A DNA stretch of 18,084 nucleotides from Gemmatimonadota bacterium (lineage in GTDB: Bacteria > Gemmatimonadota > Gemmatimonadetes > Longimicrobiales > Gaopeijiaceae). Positions 2,248-17,436 of the stretch are shown piece after piece. Made by a program: the position numbers and the translations under genes. How positions within the stretch are numbered: position 1 is the first letter of the stretch; each line of letters begins with the position of its first letter. The stretch is taken from positions 1 to 18,084 of the forward strand of contig JBDHHQ010000084.1 of assembly GCA_039589315.1 (NCBI GenBank), given 5' to 3'. The notes under the pieces are model-generated. The model did not search any database, was not told the DNA's origin, and saw only the letters and a list, made by a program, of their open reading frames with translations.

Positions 2248-3303
2248 ATGACAACTCCCGAAGACGAACCCGCTACCGGCACCGACCTCACTGCCCTCAT
2301 CGCCAAGGTCGCAGCCCGCGAATCTCTCTCGGCCGCGGAGGCCGAGGTGGCGTTCGATCGCTTCATGAGCGGCACGGCCACGCCGGTTCAGATGGCTGCG
2401 CTGCTCATGGGCCTCCGCACCAAGGGACACACCTCGGCCGAGGTCGCCGGCGGCGTCCGTGCGCTGCGCCGCGCGATGGTGTCTGTAGACGCTGGGGATC
2501 CCGCAGAGATCACCGACACCTGCGGCACGGGCGGCGGTACATTGACCACGTTCAACATCTCCACGGCGGCCGCTTTCGTGGCTGCCGGCGCCGGCGCTCG
2601 CATCGCCAAGCACGGCAACCGCTCCTTCACGTCACGCAGCGGAAGCGCCGACGTGCTCGAGGCGCTGGGTGTCACGATCGAGCTGCCGCCGGCTGCCATC
2701 GAGCGCGTCGCCCGCACCGTCGGCATCGTGTTCCTGTACGCCCCCGCGCACCACCCCGCCATGCGGCACGTGGGCCCTGTCCGTCGGGAGCTGGGCATTC
2801 CCACGATCATGAATCTGCTGGGCCCCCTGGCGAACCCGGCAGGGGCCCGGCGGCAGATGGTAGGGGTGTCGGACCCGGCGCTCCTGTCCCTGGTGGCGCA
2901 CGCACTGTTGGAATTGGGCCACCTCCGGGCATTGGTGGTCTACGGCGAGGCCGGTATGGACGAGCTCAGCCCACTGGGACCGTCCCGCGTGGCGGAGCTC
3001 GACGGGGGTGAGATCCGGGAGCTCACCGTCACACCCGAATCCCTGGGGCTGCAGACTCAGCCGGCCGAGGGTCTCGCGGGCGGTGAACCGGACGAGAATG
3101 CCCGTCGCATCATGAGCGTGCTGACGGGTGCCGATCAGGGTGCGGCCCGAGCCGCCACGCTTCTGAATGCCGGTGGAGCCCTTTACGTCGCGGGAAGAGC
3201 CGCTTCGCTCCAAGCGGGGGTCACGCTGGCCACGGCGTCGTTGGACTCCGGAGCCGCCCTCGAGAAGTTGGAAGCCCTCAAAGCCGGCACGGCCGGGGGG
3301 TAA
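2248..3303 (+). CDS. trpD: Anthranilate phosphoribosyltransferase
   Basis: DTCGTGGG, TFNIST, AKHGNRSFTSRSGSADVLEALG, HHPAMRHVGPVRRELG, NLLGPLANP, GMDE. The likely start is ATG 2248; the track's extension to 1504 overlaps truA antisense. Confidence 0.96.
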   Translation: MTTPEDEPATGTDLTALIAKVAARESLSAAEAEVAFDRFMSGTATPVQMAALLMGLRTKGHTSAEVAGGVRALRRAMVSVDAGDPAEITDTCGTGGGTLTTFNISTAAAFVAAGAGARIAKHGNRSFTSRSGSADVLEALGVTIELPPAAIERVARTVGIVFLYAPAHHPAMRHVGPVRRELGIPTIMNLLGPLANPAGARRQMVGVSDPALLSLVAHALLELGHLRALVVYGEAGMDELSPLGPSRVAELDGGEIRELTVTPESLGLQTQPAEGLAGGEPDENARRIMSVLTGADQGAARAATLLNAGGALYVAGRAASLQAGVTLATASLDSGAALEKLEALKAGTAGG

Positions 3304-3555: not shown

Positions 3556-4164
3556 CTAGTACTTGCGGATCACGCCCACGACGACCCCTTGGACGGTGAG
3601 GTCGTTCGCGTCCACGAACATTGGCTCCATGGCGGAATTGGCGGGCTGAAGCCGGACCCGGTTGTCCCGCTCCCTGTAGAGCTTCTTCACGGTAGCCGAT
3701 TCGCCCCCGACCAGGGCGATGACCGTCTCGCCGTTCTCGGCCGTGTTCTTGGCGTTCACCACGATGTAGTCGCCGTCGCGGATCTGCTCGTCGATCATGG
3801 AGTTGCCTTCCACGCGGAGCACGTAGTTCTTGTGCCCGGGGCGCACCATGTCGGGGGGGACCGCGAGGGTTTCCGCGGACGCGATCGCTTCGATGGGGAG
3901 ACCCGCGGCCACCGCTCCCAGAAGGGGGAGGTCGACGGCCTGGGCGCCGGTTTCGTCGGGCACGACCTCGATGGAGCGGCTCTCGTTGTAGGACTTCCGG
4001 ATATAGCCCTTGCGCTCCAGATTGCTGAGATGCTCGTGCACCGTGGCCAGGGACGAGTACCCGAACGACTCGGCGATCTCTTCGAAGCTGGGCGCGTACC
4101 CTCGCTCCTCGATGAACGCCTGAATGTAGTCGAGGATCTCTTTCTGACGCTTGGTCAGGGGCAT
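3556..4164 (-). CDS. lexA: SOS repressor LexA
   Basis: MPLTKRQKEILDYI, PSFEEIA, SSLATVHEHLSNLERKGYI (winged HTH), VAAGLP (Ala-Gly cleavage site), GNSM (Ser), ATVKK (Lys). RBS GAGGAG 7 nt before ATG 4164. Confidence 0.97.
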   Translation of the reverse strand: MPLTKRQKEILDYIQAFIEERGYAPSFEEIAESFGYSSLATVHEHLSNLERKGYIRKSYNESRSIEVVPDETGAQAVDLPLLGAVAAGLPIEAIASAETLAVPPDMVRPGHKNYVLRVEGNSMIDEQIRDGDYIVVNAKNTAENGETVIALVGGESATVKKLYRERDNRVRLQPANSAMEPMFVDANDLTVQGVVVGVIRKY

Positions 4165-4188
4165 TTCATCGCTCCTCATCCGGTGAAA

Positions 4189-4231
4189 CCGAACAGGTAC
4201 CGAATGAACGATACCCGAACGTTGCCCGAAA
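4189..4231 (-). promoter_or_regulatory. Candidate LexA operators: tandem GAAC-N7-GAAC-type direct repeats
   Basis: Plus strand: GAAC(4191)-N7-GAAT(4202) and GAAC(4206)-N7-GAAC(4217)-N7-GAAA(4228). Equivalently, two copies of CCGAAC-N5-CCGAA. Confidence 0.7.
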
Positions 4232-4236
4232 CGCAA
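4208..4236 (-). promoter_or_regulatory. Putative sigma70 promoter of lexA
   Basis: Minus strand TTGCGT (4236-4231), 17-nt spacer, TATCGT (4213-4208); overlapped by the direct repeats. Confidence 0.6.
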
Positions 4237-4328
4237 GCGTCGCGACGCGGGGGCCCGGGCATCGATCCGTCAGGCACGGATTGCGGTACGTGCACGTGAG
4301 GCGTTCGAGGGGACGGGGAGCGCCGGCC

Positions 4329-5123
4329 GTGCACATCCTGGACCGGATCGTTCGGACCAAGCGGGCCGAGGTGGCCGCCCTCGGACGGGATGGAGACGCG
4401 CTGGTCGAGGAGGCTCGGATGGCCCCGCCAGCCCGGGACTTCGCCGGGGCGCTGGCACGCCCCGACTCCGTCGCGGTCATCGCCGAGGTGAAGAGAAGGT
4501 CGCCGGGTGCCGGGGCGATCCGGCTGGAGCTCGACCCCGTCCTTCAGGCACGAGGATACGAGTCCGGGGCCGCGTCGGCCGTGAGCGTCCTCACCGACGA
4601 ACAGTATTTCTCCGGTAGCCTGGACGACCTGCGCGATACGCGACGCGCGGTCGAGCTTCCCGTGCTCCGCAAGGACTTCGTGCTCGACCCGCTTCAGCTG
4701 TGGCAAGCCCGGGCAGCCGGCGCCGATGCCGTCCTGCTCATCGTTCGCATTCTCGCCGACGACGAGCTGTCGAGCCTTCAGGCCCTGGCCGGGGAGCTCG
4801 GCATGGCGGCCCTCGTCGAAGTGCACGACGGGGGGGAGCTGGAGAGGGCGCTTGCTGCCGAGGCCCGGATCGTGGGCATCAACAACCGGGACCTGAGCAC
4901 CTTCGAGACGAGCTTGGACGTGACACTGGGTCTCCTGGACCGGGTGCCGGACGATGTCTTGCTCGTGTCCGAGAGCGGGATCGGCGGACCGGCCGACGTC
5001 GACCGCCTCGGTGCCGCCGGGGTGGACGCGGTGCTGGTCGGAGAATGGCTGGTCCGGCAGCCCGATCCGGGGGAAGCGGCGGCCGCGCTGGCGGGGCGGT
5101 CCCGGACGGCCCGCCGTCGATGA
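4329..5123 (+). CDS. trpC: Indole-3-glycerol phosphate synthase
   Basis: ILDRIV, VIAEVKRRSP, SVLTDEQYFSGS, PVLRKDF, GADAVLLI, LVEVH, GINNRDL, VSESGI, LVGE. GTG 4329 chosen because GGAG lies 8 nt upstream. Confidence 0.95.
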   Translation: MHILDRIVRTKRAEVAALGRDGDALVEEARMAPPARDFAGALARPDSVAVIAEVKRRSPGAGAIRLELDPVLQARGYESGAASAVSVLTDEQYFSGSLDDLRDTRRAVELPVLRKDFVLDPLQLWQARAAGADAVLLIVRILADDELSSLQALAGELGMAALVEVHDGGELERALAAEARIVGINNRDLSTFETSLDVTLGLLDRVPDDVLLVSESGIGGPADVDRLGAAGVDAVLVGEWLVRQPDPGEAAAALAGRSRTARRR

Positions 5124-5815: not shown

Positions 5816-7027
5816 ATGACGTTGTTGACGACGTCGGGCATCGGCCGGTTCGGTGTCTTCGGGGGGCGGTACGTTCCCGAGACCCTGATCTCCGCGCTGG
5901 ACGAGCTCGATGCAGCGTACCGGGATGCCTTGAAGGACCCCGCGTTCCACGAGGAGCTCGGCGCGCTCCTCGCCGATTATGTCGGTCGGCCATCACCGCT
6001 GTACCGTGCCCACCGACTCGAGCGTGAGGTGGGAGCGCGCCAGCTCTACCTCAAACGAGAGGATCTGAACCACACCGGTGCCCACAAGATCAACAACACC
6101 CTGGGCCAGGCGCTGCTGGCACGCCGCATGGGCAAGAGACGTGTCATCGCCGAGACCGGGGCCGGACAGCACGGTGTCGCCACGGCCACGGCCTGCGCCC
6201 TCTTCGACCTGGACTGCGTCGTCTACATGGGCGCCGAGGACGTCGAGCGCCAGGCCCTCAACGTATACCGGATGGAGCTGCTGGGAGCCGAGGTCCGGCA
6301 GGTCGAGGCGGGGACGCAGACCCTCAAGGACGCCACCAACGAAGCGCTCCGCGACTGGGTCACGAGCGTCGAGGACACCCACTACATCATCGGCTCGGTG
6401 GTCGGGCCGGCCCCCTTTCCCGAGATCGTGCGGGACTTTCAGGCCGTGATCGGGAAGGAGACCCGGGAACAGATCCTGGCTGCGACGGGACGGCTGCCGC
6501 ATGTGGTCATCGCCTGCGTCGGAGGCGGCTCCAACGCTCTGGGCATCTTCCATGCCTTCGAGGGCGACGCCCGGGTCGAGTTGGTGGGTGTCGAGGCCGC
6601 AGGCGAAGGCATCAGCTCGGGCCGACACTCGGCCTCACTCACCGCCGGACGTCCGGGTGTCCTTCACGGATCCTTGAGCTATCTTCTTCAGGACGCCGAC
6701 GGCCAAGTGGCCCCTGCCCACTCGATCTCGGCCGGACTCGACTACCCGGGCGTGGGGCCTGAGCACTCGTATCTCAAGGACACTGGACGCGCCCGCTACG
6801 TGTCGGTCACGGATTCGCAGGCCCTGGACGCATTCCATGCCCTCTCCCGACTCGAGGGCATCATCCCGGCCCTGGAGTCCGCCCACGCCGTGGCCCACCT
6901 GCGCGTGGAGCGGTCCGCTTACGCCGACCGGGGACCCGTCGTTATCTGTCTGAGCGGCCGCGGGGACAAGGACGTCGCTCATGTGGCCCGCTTCGAGGAG
7001 CGGGACCCGCCGGCCGAGGGACCGTGA
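5816..7027 (+). CDS. trpB: Tryptophan synthase beta subunit
   Basis: [31 protein letters not shown] (PLP Lys), [40 protein letters not shown]. Confidence 0.98.
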
Positions 7028-8781
7028 GCGACCCCGCCGACGCCTCGGGCGTGGCCCCCGCGGGAGCCATCGACTGGGAGGACCCCTCGACCCTTCCGCT
7101 CGACGAGGTGCGCGACCTCTTCCAGACCCTGGCGAAGGCGCTCCGCGCGTATCAGCTCTACGACGAAAACAACCCCGTGTACAAGCGCTTCGTGGGGAAC
7201 CTGCGGGAGTCGTTCCAGGGTCTCTGGGGCGAGGTCGGGCGGCTCCCGGTCCAGGTCGAGGAGGACCGCATCACCTGGCTCCGGGAAGAGGTCTACCGGT
7301 CCGAGAGCCGCGCCGATTCGCTGGCCTTCCTCTTCTACAAGGACGGCATTCGGGAATTCACGTTTCTCCCCGGCATCGAAGATGTCGAGCTCGAACCGCT
7401 CCTGAGCGTCCTCCAGCGGGCGCGCAACCTTCGTCCCGAGAGCGACGACCTGCTCACGATCCTCTGGGAGGCGGACCTCTCGCGCTTCCAGTACCACTAC
7501 GTAGATGTTCTGGCTGAGGGGATCGATAGCCCTATCCTGGAAGGAGATACGCAGCCTAATCTCAGGTTGATTCTCACAGGTGAGCTGAGTCTCGACGACA
7601 TCCCAGAGGCAGACGAAGCCGCGGCCCAGGTCGCCGGTGCCGAACAGGCCGCGCCCCTCCGGCCGAAGGTGAGCGCCGACGACCTGAACCCGACGCTCTA
7701 CTCCCTCAACGCGCGGGAGATGGAGCAGCTCCGCAAGGAGCTGGATCGGGAGATGGCCCGGGACCTGAGGGGGGACGTGCTAGCGGCGCTCTTCGATCGG
7801 CTCGAGGAGCCGGGGAACCCGGGTCGCCAGACGCAGATCCTGGCCATTCTCAGGACGCTGCTTCCCAACTTCCTCAGTCGTGGCGAGATCACGGCCGCCG
7901 CCACCGTGCTCGAGGAAGTGGGGGCCCTGATCCGGGACGAGCGACGCTTCGACGGCGCACGGCGAGCCCAAGCCGGGGCCATGGTCGAGGAGATCAGCGG
8001 CGCCGACTCGATCGAGGAGCTGATCCGGGCACTTCAGGATGGCTCGATCCGGCCGGCTCCCCGGGAGCTCAGCGACTTCCTGCGCCACCTGGGCGCCGGC
8101 GCGCTGGAGCCCCTGATCCGGGCCGCGGAGGAGACCGAGGAAAAGGAGCTCCGCCCCGTGCTGCGGGAGGCCTGTCGCGGAATCGCGGCGCAGAACCGCG
8201 TTGCCCTTCTCGCGCTCCTGGAGTCCGACGAGCCGGCCGTCGTCGCGGGCGCGACCCGAGTCGCCGGCCGGATCCAGCTCACCGAGGCCGGGACGAAGCT
8301 GTCTGAGCTCCTCAGCCACGAGGACGAGCGGGTCCAGCTCGCGGCTATCGAGGCGGCCGTCAACCTGAAGGCGTCCACCGCCGCAGGAGCGCTGGAGGCC
8401 GCGTTGCAGCACTCCGATCGGAGCATCCGCATGGCTTCGGCGAGAGGCCTCGCACACCTCCGGTACAAGCCCGCCGAGAGGACTCTGAGGCAAGTGATCA
8501 CCTCGAAGCAGGTTCGCCAGGCCGACCTGTCGGAGAAGATCGCGTTCTTCGAGGCGTTCGGTCTCCTGGCGGGCGCCGGTGGCGTCTCCGTGCTCGACCG
8601 GATGCTGAACAGCCGGGGCTTCCTCGGCCGTCGGGAGTCCCCGGACGTGCGGGCCTGTGCGGCCCTCGCCCTGGGCAAGATCCGGACGGCTGCCGCGAGA
8701 AAGGCGCTGGAAACCGCCGCCAAGGAGGACGACCCCGTCGTTCGCAGCGCCGTGAACCGGGCTCTCCGGGGAGAGGACTAG
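7024..8781 (+). CDS. HEAT-repeat protein with an uncharacterised N-terminal domain
   Basis: 585 aa, high GC3, GTGA overlap with the trpB stop. C-terminal HEAT-like repeats: [56 protein letters not shown]. Confidence 0.85.
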
Positions 8782-8784
8782 ACC

Positions 8785-10230
8785 GTGGGCGATCCCGGAT
8801 CCCCAGCGCGCGCCGACGGCGCCTTCCTCCAGGAGTACGGACGGAAGGTGCTGACCGGGTTCTACGCGGCCCTGCGGGCGCTGAAGTTCTACCCGGTCGA
8901 GAACACGACCGTGCAGCAGGCCATCGACGAGCTCCACGGCATCATCACCGAGCTGGTCGAGATCGAAGGAGGCGTCGAGCTCAAGGTGGTCGGGGACTTC
9001 TTCTTCCTGAACGAGACGCGCCTTCGGCTGGATCTCACCAACTACTCCACGTTCGGCAGCTTCAGCCGGGCCCTGGGCGAGCACGAGATCGGTGCCGTTC
9101 AGGTCCTGGAGGGGATGGGGCGGGAGGAGTGGGCGCCGTTCCTGTCGGTATTGCTCCGGAACGCCGAAGGCGATCGGCCCTTCGAGAGCTTCCTGGCCCG
9201 ATTGGATGGGAGCCCGGCACACCACGTGGTCCTCGAAAAGGCCAAGGAGACCCTGCAGACGGACCTCGAGGCCGAGGAGTCGCTCGCCGCTGCCAAACGG
9301 ACCTACACCCAGTCGGTGAAGGTCGCCAACGGTGTCCTCACCGACGTTCGCATGGGCCGGGCCGTGAACGTCCGCAAGGTCAAACGGGCCGTTCAAGGCA
9401 TCGTGGACCAGGTGCTGTCCAACGAGCCGTCGCTGGTAGCCATGACCACCCTCCGCGACTTCGACGAGTACACGTTCACCCACTCGGTCAACGTGTGCAT
9501 CTTCAGCGTGGTCATCGGACAGCGCCTGGGGCTGACGCGCCTCCAGCTCTACGAGCTCGGGTTGGGGGCCCTGTTCCACGACGTCGGGAAGATGAAGATG
9601 GACCCCGAGCTCATCACCAAAACCGGGGCCCTCGACGACGAGGAATGGGCACAGATGAGGGAGCACCCCACGGAGGGCCTGCTCCTGCTCTTCAAGCTGC
9701 ACGGCTTCGCGGACGTGCCGTACCGCCAGATGCTGACGGCCTACGAGCACCACATGAAGGTGGACGCCTCCGGTTATCCGGCGAACAAGCGGGCGCGCCT
9801 GCCCAGCCTGTTTTCCAGGATCGTGGCCGTGGCGGACTCCTTCGACGCCGCCACGTCCGTCCGCAGCTATCAGTACGAGCCGTGGCCGCCCGACGAGGTC
9901 CTCAAGGAGATGCGAGACAACCCGAGCCGCGGAATGGACCCGCTCCTGGTCAAGGCCCTGATCAACGCCACGGGCGTCTATCCAGTGGGCACGCTGGTCA
10001 TCCTCGACACGCTGGAGTTGGCGGTCGTGGTGCAGTCGAACCCGAACCTGGACATGCTGCATCAGCCCGTCGTGAAGGTCATTTCCGATGCCGTGGGGGT
10101 CCCCCTCGCTGAGCCGCGCACGCTGGACCTGTCCGAATCGGATCCCGTGACCGGTGACCCGTTGCGCGCGATCATCAAAACCACGGACGCCAACAAGTAC
10201 GGGGTGCGCGTGGCGGACTACCTCGTCTGA
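8785..10230 (+). CDS. HD-GYP-type metal-dependent phosphohydrolase (putative cyclic dinucleotide phosphodiesterase)
   Basis: DEYTFTHSVNV, FHDVGK, REHPTEG, EHHMKVDASGYP, RIVAVADSFDA, RSYQ, and a C-terminal GVYPVGTLVIL extension. Starts 3 nt after the HEAT gene stop. Confidence 0.88.
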   Translation: MGDPGSPARADGAFLQEYGRKVLTGFYAALRALKFYPVENTTVQQAIDELHGIITELVEIEGGVELKVVGDFFFLNETRLRLDLTNYSTFGSFSRALGEHEIGAVQVLEGMGREEWAPFLSVLLRNAEGDRPFESFLARLDGSPAHHVVLEKAKETLQTDLEAEESLAAAKRTYTQSVKVANGVLTDVRMGRAVNVRKVKRAVQGIVDQVLSNEPSLVAMTTLRDFDEYTFTHSVNVCIFSVVIGQRLGLTRLQLYELGLGALFHDVGKMKMDPELITKTGALDDEEWAQMREHPTEGLLLLFKLHGFADVPYRQMLTAYEHHMKVDASGYPANKRARLPSLFSRIVAVADSFDAATSVRSYQYEPWPPDEVLKEMRDNPSRGMDPLLVKALINATGVYPVGTLVILDTLELAVVVQSNPNLDMLHQPVVKVISDAVGVPLAEPRTLDLSESDPVTGDPLRAIIKTTDANKYGVRVADYLV

Positions 10231-10252: not shown

Positions 10253-11071
10253 ATGAGCGCCCAGGAAATCCGCCTCGCCCGGGCCTTCGCCTCGAGGACC
10301 GAAGCCGGGCGGGCAGCCCTGGTGCCGTATGTCACCGCCGGCTATCCGGACGCGACGTCGACGGCGAGACTCCTCCTGGGCCTCGCCGACGCGGGTGCCG
10401 ACGTCATCGAATTGGGCATCCCCTTCAGCGATCCCGTAGCAGACGGACCGACCATACAGGCCTCGTCATTCGCGGCGCTGTCGGCCGGGATGACCCTCGT
10501 GCGCGCGCTCTCGCTCCTCCGGGAGTTCCGCGCCCAGCGGGAAACACCCGCGGTGGTCTTCTCCTATCTGAACCCGGTTCTGCGCTACGGCCTGGAGTCG
10601 TTCCTGGCCGAGGCCGTGGACGCGGGAGCCGACGGGCTGCTCCTCACCGACCTGCCCACCGGGGCCGACCCCGCTCTCGAGGCCGAGATCGATGCGTCGG
10701 GCCTGGCGCTGATCCGGCTGATCGCGCCCACGACCCCTGGCGAACGGCTCCGGGAGATCGTGCGGGGCGCCCGCGGGTTCCTCTACTACATCTCGCGAAC
10801 CGGTGTGACGGGGGCACGGAAGGACCTCCGCGACGAACTGGCCCATGAGGTGACGGCCATCCGTGAGCTGGCCTCTCTCCCCATCGCCGTGGGTTTCGGG
10901 ATCTCGACGCCCGAACAGGCGGCACGCGTCGGGGCCGTGGCCGATGGGGTGGTCGTGGGGAGCGCCCTGGTCCGCGCTCTGGAGGCCGGGGGCGTCGACG
11001 GTGCCGTCGCCTTCTGCCGGTCGTTACGGGAGGGAATGGACGGTGCGGGCGAAGGGGCGTCAGCACCCTGA
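10253..11071 (+). CDS. trpA: Tryptophan synthase alpha subunit
   Basis: PYVTAGYP, IELGIPFSDPVADGPTIQ, SYLNP, LIAPTT, YYISRTGVTG, VGFGIST, DGVVVGSA. ATG 10253. Confidence 0.96.
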   Translation: MSAQEIRLARAFASRTEAGRAALVPYVTAGYPDATSTARLLLGLADAGADVIELGIPFSDPVADGPTIQASSFAALSAGMTLVRALSLLREFRAQRETPAVVFSYLNPVLRYGLESFLAEAVDAGADGLLLTDLPTGADPALEAEIDASGLALIRLIAPTTPGERLREIVRGARGFLYYISRTGVTGARKDLRDELAHEVTAIRELASLPIAVGFGISTPEQAARVGAVADGVVVGSALVRALEAGGVDGAVAFCRSLREGMDGAGEGASAP

Positions 11072-16517: not shown

Positions 16518-16557
16518 GCAGGCGGGCCGTCCGCCCCCGGCCTGACCGTTGACACCC

Positions 16558-17436
16558 ATGGAGCCCGGCGAGCCATCGGCTGGTCCCGCCGCCGACCCGT
16601 CGGCCGGGGTGGTCTTCTGCGGGCTCGCTCGGAACTGCGCCCACGCCCTTCCCGCTCTGCTCGAGGTCGTGTCGGCCGCAGGCCGCGCCCTCGGCGACTG
16701 GGCGTACGTCCTGCTCGAGAGCGATTCATACGACGGCACGGCGAATGTCCTCCAGGCGTTCGATGACCGGAACGGCAGGGGCATCGTGCGCAGCTACGGT
16801 CGGCTGCGCCGTCGATTCTCCGCGCGCAACGAGCGACTGGCCTACCTGAGAAACGAATACCTCCGACTCTCTGAGGAGTCAGGCTATTTCGACCGCTGTT
16901 CCCTCTGTGTGGTGCTGGACCTGGACCGGGTCAACGAGAACCTCGACCCTGCTCGCCTGGTCACGCTGCTGCAAGAGACCCCCCGCGAATGGGCTGGGTT
17001 GTTCGCCAACCAATCCGAGCGGTACTACGACGTCTGGGCCCTTCGGCACCCCGAGTGGAGTCCCGACGACTGCTGGGCCCGCGTGAAGAACCGCCCGGCG
17101 TCCATGAGCGAGAAGGACGCCGCGCGTGAGTTCGTGGAGGCCCGGATGATCCGCGTCCCTCCTGACAGCGAGCGGATCGAGGTGGAAAGCGCCTTCGGCG
17201 GGCTTGGCATCTACGACCTGGACATGCTCAGGGGATGCCGCTACCGGGGCGTCGCCGAGGACGGGTCGCCGGTGTGCGAGCACGTCCCGATGCACGCGCA
17301 GATCAGGAAGAAGGGCGGGCGGCTCTTCATCGAGCCGTCGCTCATCAACGGTAGCGGCGTGCAGGAGCACAAGGCCACGGGTGCTAGTCGCGCCGTGGCG
17401 TGGTTGGGCAGCGTGCTCCGCGGGAATCGCCCTTAG
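16558..17436 (+). CDS. Putative GT-A fold glycosyltransferase-like protein
   Basis: FCGLARNC, ESDSYDGT, RLAYLRN, VLDLD (DxD), YYDVWALR, VESAFGGLGIY, CEH. Start uncertain (ATG 16558 or TTG 16549). Confidence 0.6.
   Translation: MEPGEPSAGPAADPSAGVVFCGLARNCAHALPALLEVVSAAGRALGDWAYVLLESDSYDGTANVLQAFDDRNGRGIVRSYGRLRRRFSARNERLAYLRNEYLRLSEESGYFDRCSLCVVLDLDRVNENLDPARLVTLLQETPREWAGLFANQSERYYDVWALRHPEWSPDDCWARVKNRPASMSEKDAAREFVEARMIRVPPDSERIEVESAFGGLGIYDLDMLRGCRYRGVAEDGSPVCEHVPMHAQIRKKGGRLFIEPSLINGSGVQEHKATGASRAVAWLGSVLRGNRP

Follow-up and report, generated by a model that had tools for sequence, protein, structure and literature searches.

A shared N-terminal domain in paired HEAT-repeat and HD-GYP proteins of Gemmatimonadota and other bacteria: a possible docking module

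Undefined N-terminal domains account for the commonest architectures of HD-GYP proteins, according to the accessible part of a census preprint (10.1101/2021.11.05.467447). Here, we analysed one such domain, which is encoded twice in a window of 18,084 nucleotides (nt; the whole stretch of DNA studied, from contig C84, JBDHHQ010000084.1, of a 6.67 Mb Gemmatimonadota genome that is 95% complete): once in a HEAT-repeat protein and once in the HD-GYP enzyme encoded next to it. We suggest, with a probability of roughly one half, that the shared domain is a docking module tying the HEAT protein as an accessory subunit to a phosphodiesterase with a likely preference for 3',3'-cGAMP (cyclic GMP-AMP). 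Three groups of described proteins come closest. In the Bd1817 family (the DUF3391-HD-GYP proteins Bd1817, PA4108 and VC2497), linker helices precede the HD-GYP domain as they do in our enzyme, and the shared domain occupies the place of DUF3391, for which protein contact or dimer formation has been suggested (accessible parts of PMC3188283 and 10.1101/2021.11.05.467447). The N-terminus of Bd1817 has, however, four strands according to the same part of the preprint, whereas the shared domain starts with a two-helix hairpin and is not DUF3391; our enzyme and its relatives of type 1 (defined below) add a C-terminal beta-rich domain, and no HEAT partner is mentioned in the accessible text of the preprint, where the word 'HEAT' has 0 occurrences. 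The second group, the RxxQ/N cGAMP phosphodiesterases (PmxA of Myxococcus xanthus, Bd2325 and Gmet_3476), has the same glutamine in position four of the Rxx(K/R) motif and intact metal ligands. PmxA is a membrane protein of Cache-HAMP-HD-GYP architecture (10.1101/600031, accessible part), whereas the model of our enzyme has no predicted membrane span and the enzyme comes with a HEAT partner; moreover, a search of this genome (95% complete) yielded no cognate synthase. Bacterial HEAT and PBS-lyase-like proteins (alphaRep fold, CpcE/CpcF) share the tandem HEAT solenoid with our HEAT protein. The latter nevertheless falls far short of the NblB and CpcE cut-offs of NCBIfam and, unlike those proteins, bears the shared domain and has a linked phosphodiesterase gene. 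While the literature already covers HD-GYP enzymes, HEAT proteins and the RxxQ rule, the shared domain and its obligatory-looking partner appear to be new: no paper describing the domain, the HEAT/HD-GYP pair, the two motif branches or the GGDEF-STAND fusions was found in a search that left subscription journals mostly, and preprint supplements altogether, outside, and the accessible parts of PMC7159879 and PMC8835794 describe neither the pair nor the domain.

An earlier note on this DNA had aligned residues 28-132 of the HEAT protein with residues 18-125 of the HD-GYP protein through a single 3-residue gap and had taken both segments for an unnamed, ancient paralogous domain of ~105 residues. 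Both open reading frames are as described there (HEAT 7024-8781, HD-GYP 8785-10230), the three quoted pairs of peptides are present in the translations, and the alignment holds, albeit with 24 identities where 22 had been counted. By pairwise BLASTP, the similarity of the two N-termini is not significant (expectation value (E) 2.2); identity between the copies amounts to ~20-25%, the local alignment score is matched by 2.7% of 2000 shuffles and the global score by 0/2000. For a comparison of independent families, 120 homologues were gathered separately for each N-terminus and compared profile to profile. HHalign returned a probability of 94.65% (E 6.4e-8, 113 columns), compared to at most 1.21% for control pairings of other segments (n = 8), so that the proposed homology stands. 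Deeper alignments of 206 gene pairs gave 99.33% (E 9.9e-21, 135 columns), a value that is not independent of the hypothesis, since the segments were cut with the joint profile. The AlphaFold model of the HEAT copy has helices at residues 26-45, 51-68, 100-105, 118-134 and 143-150 and strands at 74-78, 82-85, 88-92, 109-114 and 155-159; in the HD-GYP copy, helices span 12-35, 41-61, 87-99, 113-124 and 132-141 and strands 64-69, 72-75, 78-79 (two residues only), 102-107 and 148-152. Both models thus follow the order helix-helix-strand-strand-(strand)-helix-strand-helix-helix-strand. The profile match together with this equal order indicates that the domain reaches ~30 residues past the limits first drawn: the HEAT and HD-GYP proteins share a homologous alpha/beta N-terminal domain of about 135-140 residues. 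Each copy is strongly conserved inside its own family, and in a 53-row alignment of four subfamilies the sole invariant column is a tyrosine in the loop between helices 1 and 2, which is conserved in 99-100% of the 206 pairs on both sides.

The domain was rightly called unnamed. No Pfam family matches more than 1 of the 53 domain rows and no NCBIfam family more than 2, and a profile search of the PDB sequences gave a designed repeat protein as sole match (E 6.5e-4, 35 columns). In the ESM Atlas, the clusters nearest to the HEAT copy are nameless (0.89-0.91), and the nearest named clusters of the enzyme copy are DUF3391 at 0.76, which is a value at lead level only. We rejected DUF3391 as the identity of the domain: HHalign yields 0.2-4.6% against 14 DUF3391 cores, the Pfam match covers the linker part only and stays below the cut-off, and the hint given by a structural alignment from residue 81 is lost in the best alignments to Bd1817, which start at residue 160 and comprise linker and HD-GYP domain. 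Fold searches with the full-length models, in which whole proteins rather than the domain alone served as queries, found HD-GYP, HEAT and generic matches only.

Searching the domain profile against 1.84 billion cluster representatives (50% identity clusters), we obtained 9,302 clusters with E <= 0.001, 2,830 of them at 1e-10; the larger count holds some noise, since the TPR protein P0248, among the best 150 library matches, is a false positive. At genome loci picked by the HEAT protein, an HD-GYP gene follows directly downstream with the domain in both proteins in 30/30, 79/80 and 40/40 cases (149/150), the single miss among the 80 sitting at a contig end. Metagenome loci picked by the enzyme contain the pair in 49/80 cases, and 30 of the 31 misses have less than 1,500 nt upstream. 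In 205 of 207 pairs, no more than 150 nt lie between the HEAT stop and the start of the enzyme domain. Among Gemmatimonadota, 113/151 genomes match the domain, and 81 of these 113 hold 2, 4 or 6 copies; of 50 genomes selected to span the taxonomy of 80 GGDEF-bearing loci, 10 match. Pairs with the domain in both proteins occur, among the matches listed, in Desulfuromonadales, Thermodesulfobacteriota (two), Planctomycetia, Smithella, Sumerlaeia, Deltaproteobacteria and Gemmatimonadaceae, and in Desulfuromonadia, the class of the Desulfuromonadales genome, 58/61 genomes have the domain. The listed matches also include three weak pairs from Bradymonadales (L182-L184), whose HD-GYP-like partners are without recognisable catalytic motifs; one of the three HEAT partners is fused to a Ser/Thr kinase. 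In the source genome's own family (f1), 15 of 16 sampled genomes, most of them 95-100% complete, are without HEAT gene and domain, and the loss is lineage-wide.

Architectures, taken from 37 library matches and 25 scanned locus proteins, were listed by a profile approach that the earlier note had proposed, and GGDEF, kinase, PP2C and HEAT combinations were found besides the pair; the domain is not confined to this system but recurs in many other proteins. Two copies in one chain are present in 11 of the best 150 library matches. GGDEF-AAA_16 followed by two domain copies was found in five library proteins (P0282, P0320, P0373, P0380 and P0383), three of which have C-terminal HEAT repeats, and a GGDEF-STAND-type ATPase with two domain copies and, optionally, HEAT repeats is encoded in three loci (L059 5398-9669, L061 1395-4610, L062 6977-11137), in which an HD-GYP protein with the domain was not detected. 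These GGDEF-STAND proteins are likely synthases of cyclic di-GMP (c-di-GMP), because the canonical Asp is kept in the four sequences examined. Further architectures are two domain copies followed by HEAT repeats and a Ser/Thr kinase-domain-solenoid protein, and P0384 is a HEAT/HD-GYP fusion, of which copy 1 groups with the HEAT-side and copy 2 with the HD-side domains. The underlying tree comprises 87 domains (quick search, rooted for drawing only, 39 of 84 inner branches open). It unites 23/25 enzyme-side copies, from several phyla, in one group apart from the HEAT-side copies (Shimodaira-Hasegawa-like approximate likelihood ratio test support 91), and the HEAT/HD label changes 2 times on it, compared to 17 with shuffled labels. 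A branch with support 99 separates the window's two copies, and partners do not group by operon. Since the split between HEAT-side and HD-side copies spans phyla, the tree points to a duplication older than the phyla holding the pair, in agreement with the 'ancient paralogous' origin first proposed. That the copies are leftovers of this old duplication, their roles being unrelated or lost and the genes kept together through translational coupling only, is very improbable: an identity of ~20-25% and the tight start/stop coupling would suit such a history, but each copy is strongly conserved in its own family, the pair is retained in several phyla and whether or not trp genes adjoin it, and the domain is reused on other signalling enzymes.

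In the enzyme, H233, H265, D266, K269, K279, H294, H322, H323, G330-Y331-P332, D351 and D354 are each invariant in 116/116 aligned homologues, and the HD motif and the metal-binding His/Asp residues align with 4mcw and 5z7c. The GYP motif is invariant, and the stretch preceding it is a variant (HHMKVDASGYP versus HHExh[D/N]GxGYP); the column of E185 of PmGH, the acidic ligand of a third metal, is held by Y229, which the conserved acidic E228 adjoins. The motif RxY[K/R], which reads the guanine of c-di-GMP, is replaced by RSYQ, and a paralogue on contig C161 has RPYR. The enzyme thus carries the Rxx(Q/N) motif, with Q363 found in 116/116 close homologues and, in Gemmatimonadota-type loci, in 145/158 type 1 pairs, which we define by a short HEAT protein and an enzyme with a C-terminal beta-rich domain. 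Type 2 pairs, defined by a long HEAT protein, have R or K at this position in 36/41 cases (5 unreadable), and the marker motif of the beta-rich domain is present in 156/158 type 1 and 2/41 type 2 enzymes. In 20 hand-picked pairs from Desulfuromonadia, short-HEAT enzymes have Q in 7/10 cases and long-HEAT enzymes R or K in 7/10. Reportedly, c-di-AMP (cyclic di-AMP) is barely cut by PmxA. The glutamine of RxxQ makes PmxA cGAMP-selective and the exchange Q518R reverses the selectivity, and Q or N occurs in 4.69% of HD-GYP domains (10.1101/600031, accessible part); the rule is repeated in the accessible text of the census preprint (10.1101/2021.11.05.467447). The substrate would accordingly be cGAMP in type 1 pairs (RxxQ) and c-di-GMP in type 2 pairs (RxxR/K). 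The serine of Hypr GGDEF domains is defined in the accessible part of PMC6456294; in all 20 Hypr-pattern loci examined (L186-L205), a GGDEF domain has that serine, the pattern is confined to two families, and these proteins are candidate cGAMP synthases of the phylum. A diadenylate cyclase domain is encoded on contig C8 (95293-95646) of the same genome, which therefore likely makes c-di-AMP. A search of the genome for c-di-GMP-I riboswitches gave no match, and neither did its control.

What, then, might the shared domain do for the pair? We suggest that the copies of the HEAT and HD-GYP proteins bind like-with-like and that this binding would set the assembly state or the location of the enzyme. 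The HEAT solenoid on its flexible linker may contact a further partner or the enzyme itself, and the HEAT protein would thus be a dedicated accessory subunit controlling or positioning the phosphodiesterase. A docking role is suggested because the two genes are co-inherited and tightly coupled, a full fusion and tandem copies exist, and a shared polar pocket is missing. The single invariant tyrosine would suit a shared ligand pocket less well than a role in structure or at an interface. Heterodimerisation, one of two functions offered in the earlier note, is in this way favoured by gene context, tandem copies and fusion and stays at the level of what we infer; the other, sensing of a shared ligand by an input module, received little positive support, with one tyrosine invariant across four subfamilies. 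If the domain were a small-molecule sensor, one cytoplasmic ligand would be recognised by both proteins at the Y-x3-[HN]-P loop. The enzyme would then form a one-component system, with the HEAT protein as a parallel receptor or as a buffer for the ligand. The domain does stand N-terminal to unrelated outputs (HD-GYP, histidine kinase, REC-PP2C), the usual place of a sensor, and the loop tyrosine is kept in nearly all pairs; yet the four subfamilies have no common set of polar residues, and the second copy, on a neighbouring HEAT protein at nearly all loci, is left unexplained, which makes a sensor unlikely. A mean-field analysis of coevolution used 157 type 1 gene pairs (effective number 121) and 206 gene pairs in all (effective number 167). 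Its top inter-domain z values, 7.1 and 6.3, compare to 5.1-7.4 for shuffled pairings in what is an underpowered test.

Several observations weigh against docking within the pair or against cGAMP as substrate. Single copies without a detected second copy nearby occur in a histidine kinase (L178), and the same holds for the REC-PP2C protein of L179 and for the proteins of L176, L177, L180 and L181, which are unannotated or lone HEAT proteins, indicating that an adjacent partner is not always needed. The tandem copies of the GGDEF fusions group together without sorting into HEAT-type and HD-type, which supports general self-pairing rather than a strict heterodimer, and paralogous domains encoded in one operon might just as well bind a third protein or a ligand in common. 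As to the substrate, apparent selectivity for cGAMP was seen in three of six Rxx(Q/N) candidates; two others acted on both nucleotides and the last showed no activity (10.1101/600031, accessible part). The Hypr serine is absent in all 9 GGDEF domains of the genome (7 Asp, 2 degenerate), no SMODS nucleotidyltransferase was found in the 95%-complete assembly, and a strict Hypr-like pattern is present in 23/151 genomes of the phylum versus 113 with the domain. In another arrangement, each protein would form homodimers through its domain, or the domains would bind a third partner common to both, for instance a polar landmark or a motility complex; HEAT protein and enzyme would then act side by side without domain contact. 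The single-copy fusions to histidine kinase and PP2C phosphatase, tandem copies that resemble independent internal duplications and the description of HD-GYP enzymes as active dimers (10.1101/2021.11.05.467447, accessible part) speak for this arrangement. We consider it rather doubtful, as HEAT-side and HD-side clades stayed distinct and co-inherited across phyla and P0384 fuses the whole pair. A broader version of the docking proposal, which we put forward only tentatively and hold to be rather unlikely, would see in the domain a new, widespread self-pairing signalling module by which kinases, phosphatases and the writers and erasers of second messengers are physically coupled to HEAT scaffolds, the two pair types representing an old family of two-subunit phosphodiesterases with a cGAMP and a c-di-GMP branch.

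With these results, one of the undefined N-terminal domains of HD-GYP proteins is delimited and linked to a dedicated partner protein. If docking holds true, it would represent a new kind of HD-GYP regulation, via an accessory subunit rather than a fused sensor. Geobacter is a model for cGAMP signalling, and as the pair is near-universal in its presumed class, Desulfuromonadia, docking can be tested in a tractable organism. If, in addition, the broader reading with self-pairing and two branches is true, cGAMP signalling would extend to most Gemmatimonadota, relatives of Geobacter would have a regulatory subunit for a cGAMP phosphodiesterase, and an unrecognised source of cGAMP would be expected in genomes without Hypr GGDEF.

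The coordinates of all features are collected in Table 1. The gene order is trpB, HEAT gene, HD-GYP gene, trpA, all on the forward strand; the GTG start of the HEAT gene and the trpB stop have 4 nt in common, and 3 nt separate the HEAT stop from the HD-GYP start. We take 5816..7027 to be trpB by its sequence and its position ahead of trpA. Both trpB and trpA flank the pair in 63/80 longer type 1 loci, and the trp genes probably supply expression only, because neither trpA nor trpB was seen beside type 2 pairs (0/40 loci, with short flanks). Named homologues are from Gemmatimonadota.

Table 1 Features of the HEAT/HD-GYP locus in the window (aa, amino acid residues; pLDDT, predicted local distance difference test).
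Feature	Position	Strand	Basis
HEAT-repeat protein, 585 aa, short-HEAT, type 1 partner	7024..8781	+	Pfam HEAT_2 74.1 bits; AlphaFold mean pLDDT 86.6
Shared N-terminal domain, HEAT copy, aa 26-159	7099..7500	+	HHalign, modelled secondary structure, conservation
Conserved loop Y46-x3-N50-P51, joining the first two helices of the HEAT-copy domain	within 7099..7500	+	conservation
Linker, predicted disordered, HEAT aa 163-215	7510..7668	+	pLDDT <50
Helical solenoid of HEAT repeats, aa 230-582	7711..8769	+	
HD-GYP phosphodiesterase, 481 aa	8785..10230	+	Pfam HD_5 59.6 bits; AlphaFold mean pLDDT 76.8
Shared N-terminal domain, HD-GYP copy, aa 12-152; Y36 is the counterpart of HEAT Y46	8818..9240	+	HHalign, AlphaFold model, conservation
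Two long linker helices, aa 158-223, resembling the Bd1817 linker	9256..9453	+	
HD-GYP catalytic domain, aa 224-397	9454..9975	+	residues invariant in 116/116 aligned homologues; alignment to solved HD-GYP domains
RxxQ substrate motif R360-S-Y-Q363	9862..9873	+	R, Y, Q invariant 116/116; motif meaning from 10.1101/600031 (accessible part)
C-terminal beta-rich domain, aa 398-481; in type 1 enzymes, mostly missing in type 2	9976..10227	+	strands in AlphaFold model
trpB	5816..7027	+	Pfam PALP 156 bits
trpA	10253..11071	+	Pfam Trp_syntA 290 bits

The earlier note had also counted a match of 15/17 nt between the two start regions (7020-7036 versus 8781-8797) and suspected a coincidence. The count is correct and so is the suspicion: the best 17-mer match of the two upstream regions averages 12.1 both for regions of one locus and for regions of different loci (90 loci), and 15/17 is reached by 1/90 cross-locus controls and 1/150 shuffles. 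Being no better than these controls, the nucleotide similarity of the two gene starts was discarded as a signal and is attributed to chance.

The same genome holds additional copies. A second, divergent pair on contig C161 (3253-6524) has a long HEAT protein, the motif RPYR and the domain in both proteins, and no trp genes were seen beside it. Contig C32 (18276-20486) carries a broken third copy with a TAA stop near the N-terminus, in which a type 2 HEAT protein, ending after its initial ~390 residues, continues in frame into a type 2 HD-GYP protein that is without most of its own domain; either a deletion or an assembly error would account for it. On contig C9 (32767-34422), a lone HEAT protein is encoded, the N-terminus of which matches the domain profile weakly (13.5 bits). 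Elsewhere in the window, what is presumably a LexA-like repressor gene (3556-4236, reverse strand) lies between a trpD-like (~2248-3303) and a trpC-like gene (4281-5123), and a glycosyltransferase-like open reading frame at 16549-17436 (forward strand) has a sub-threshold match to the CAP59 mannosyltransferase family (25.9 bits).

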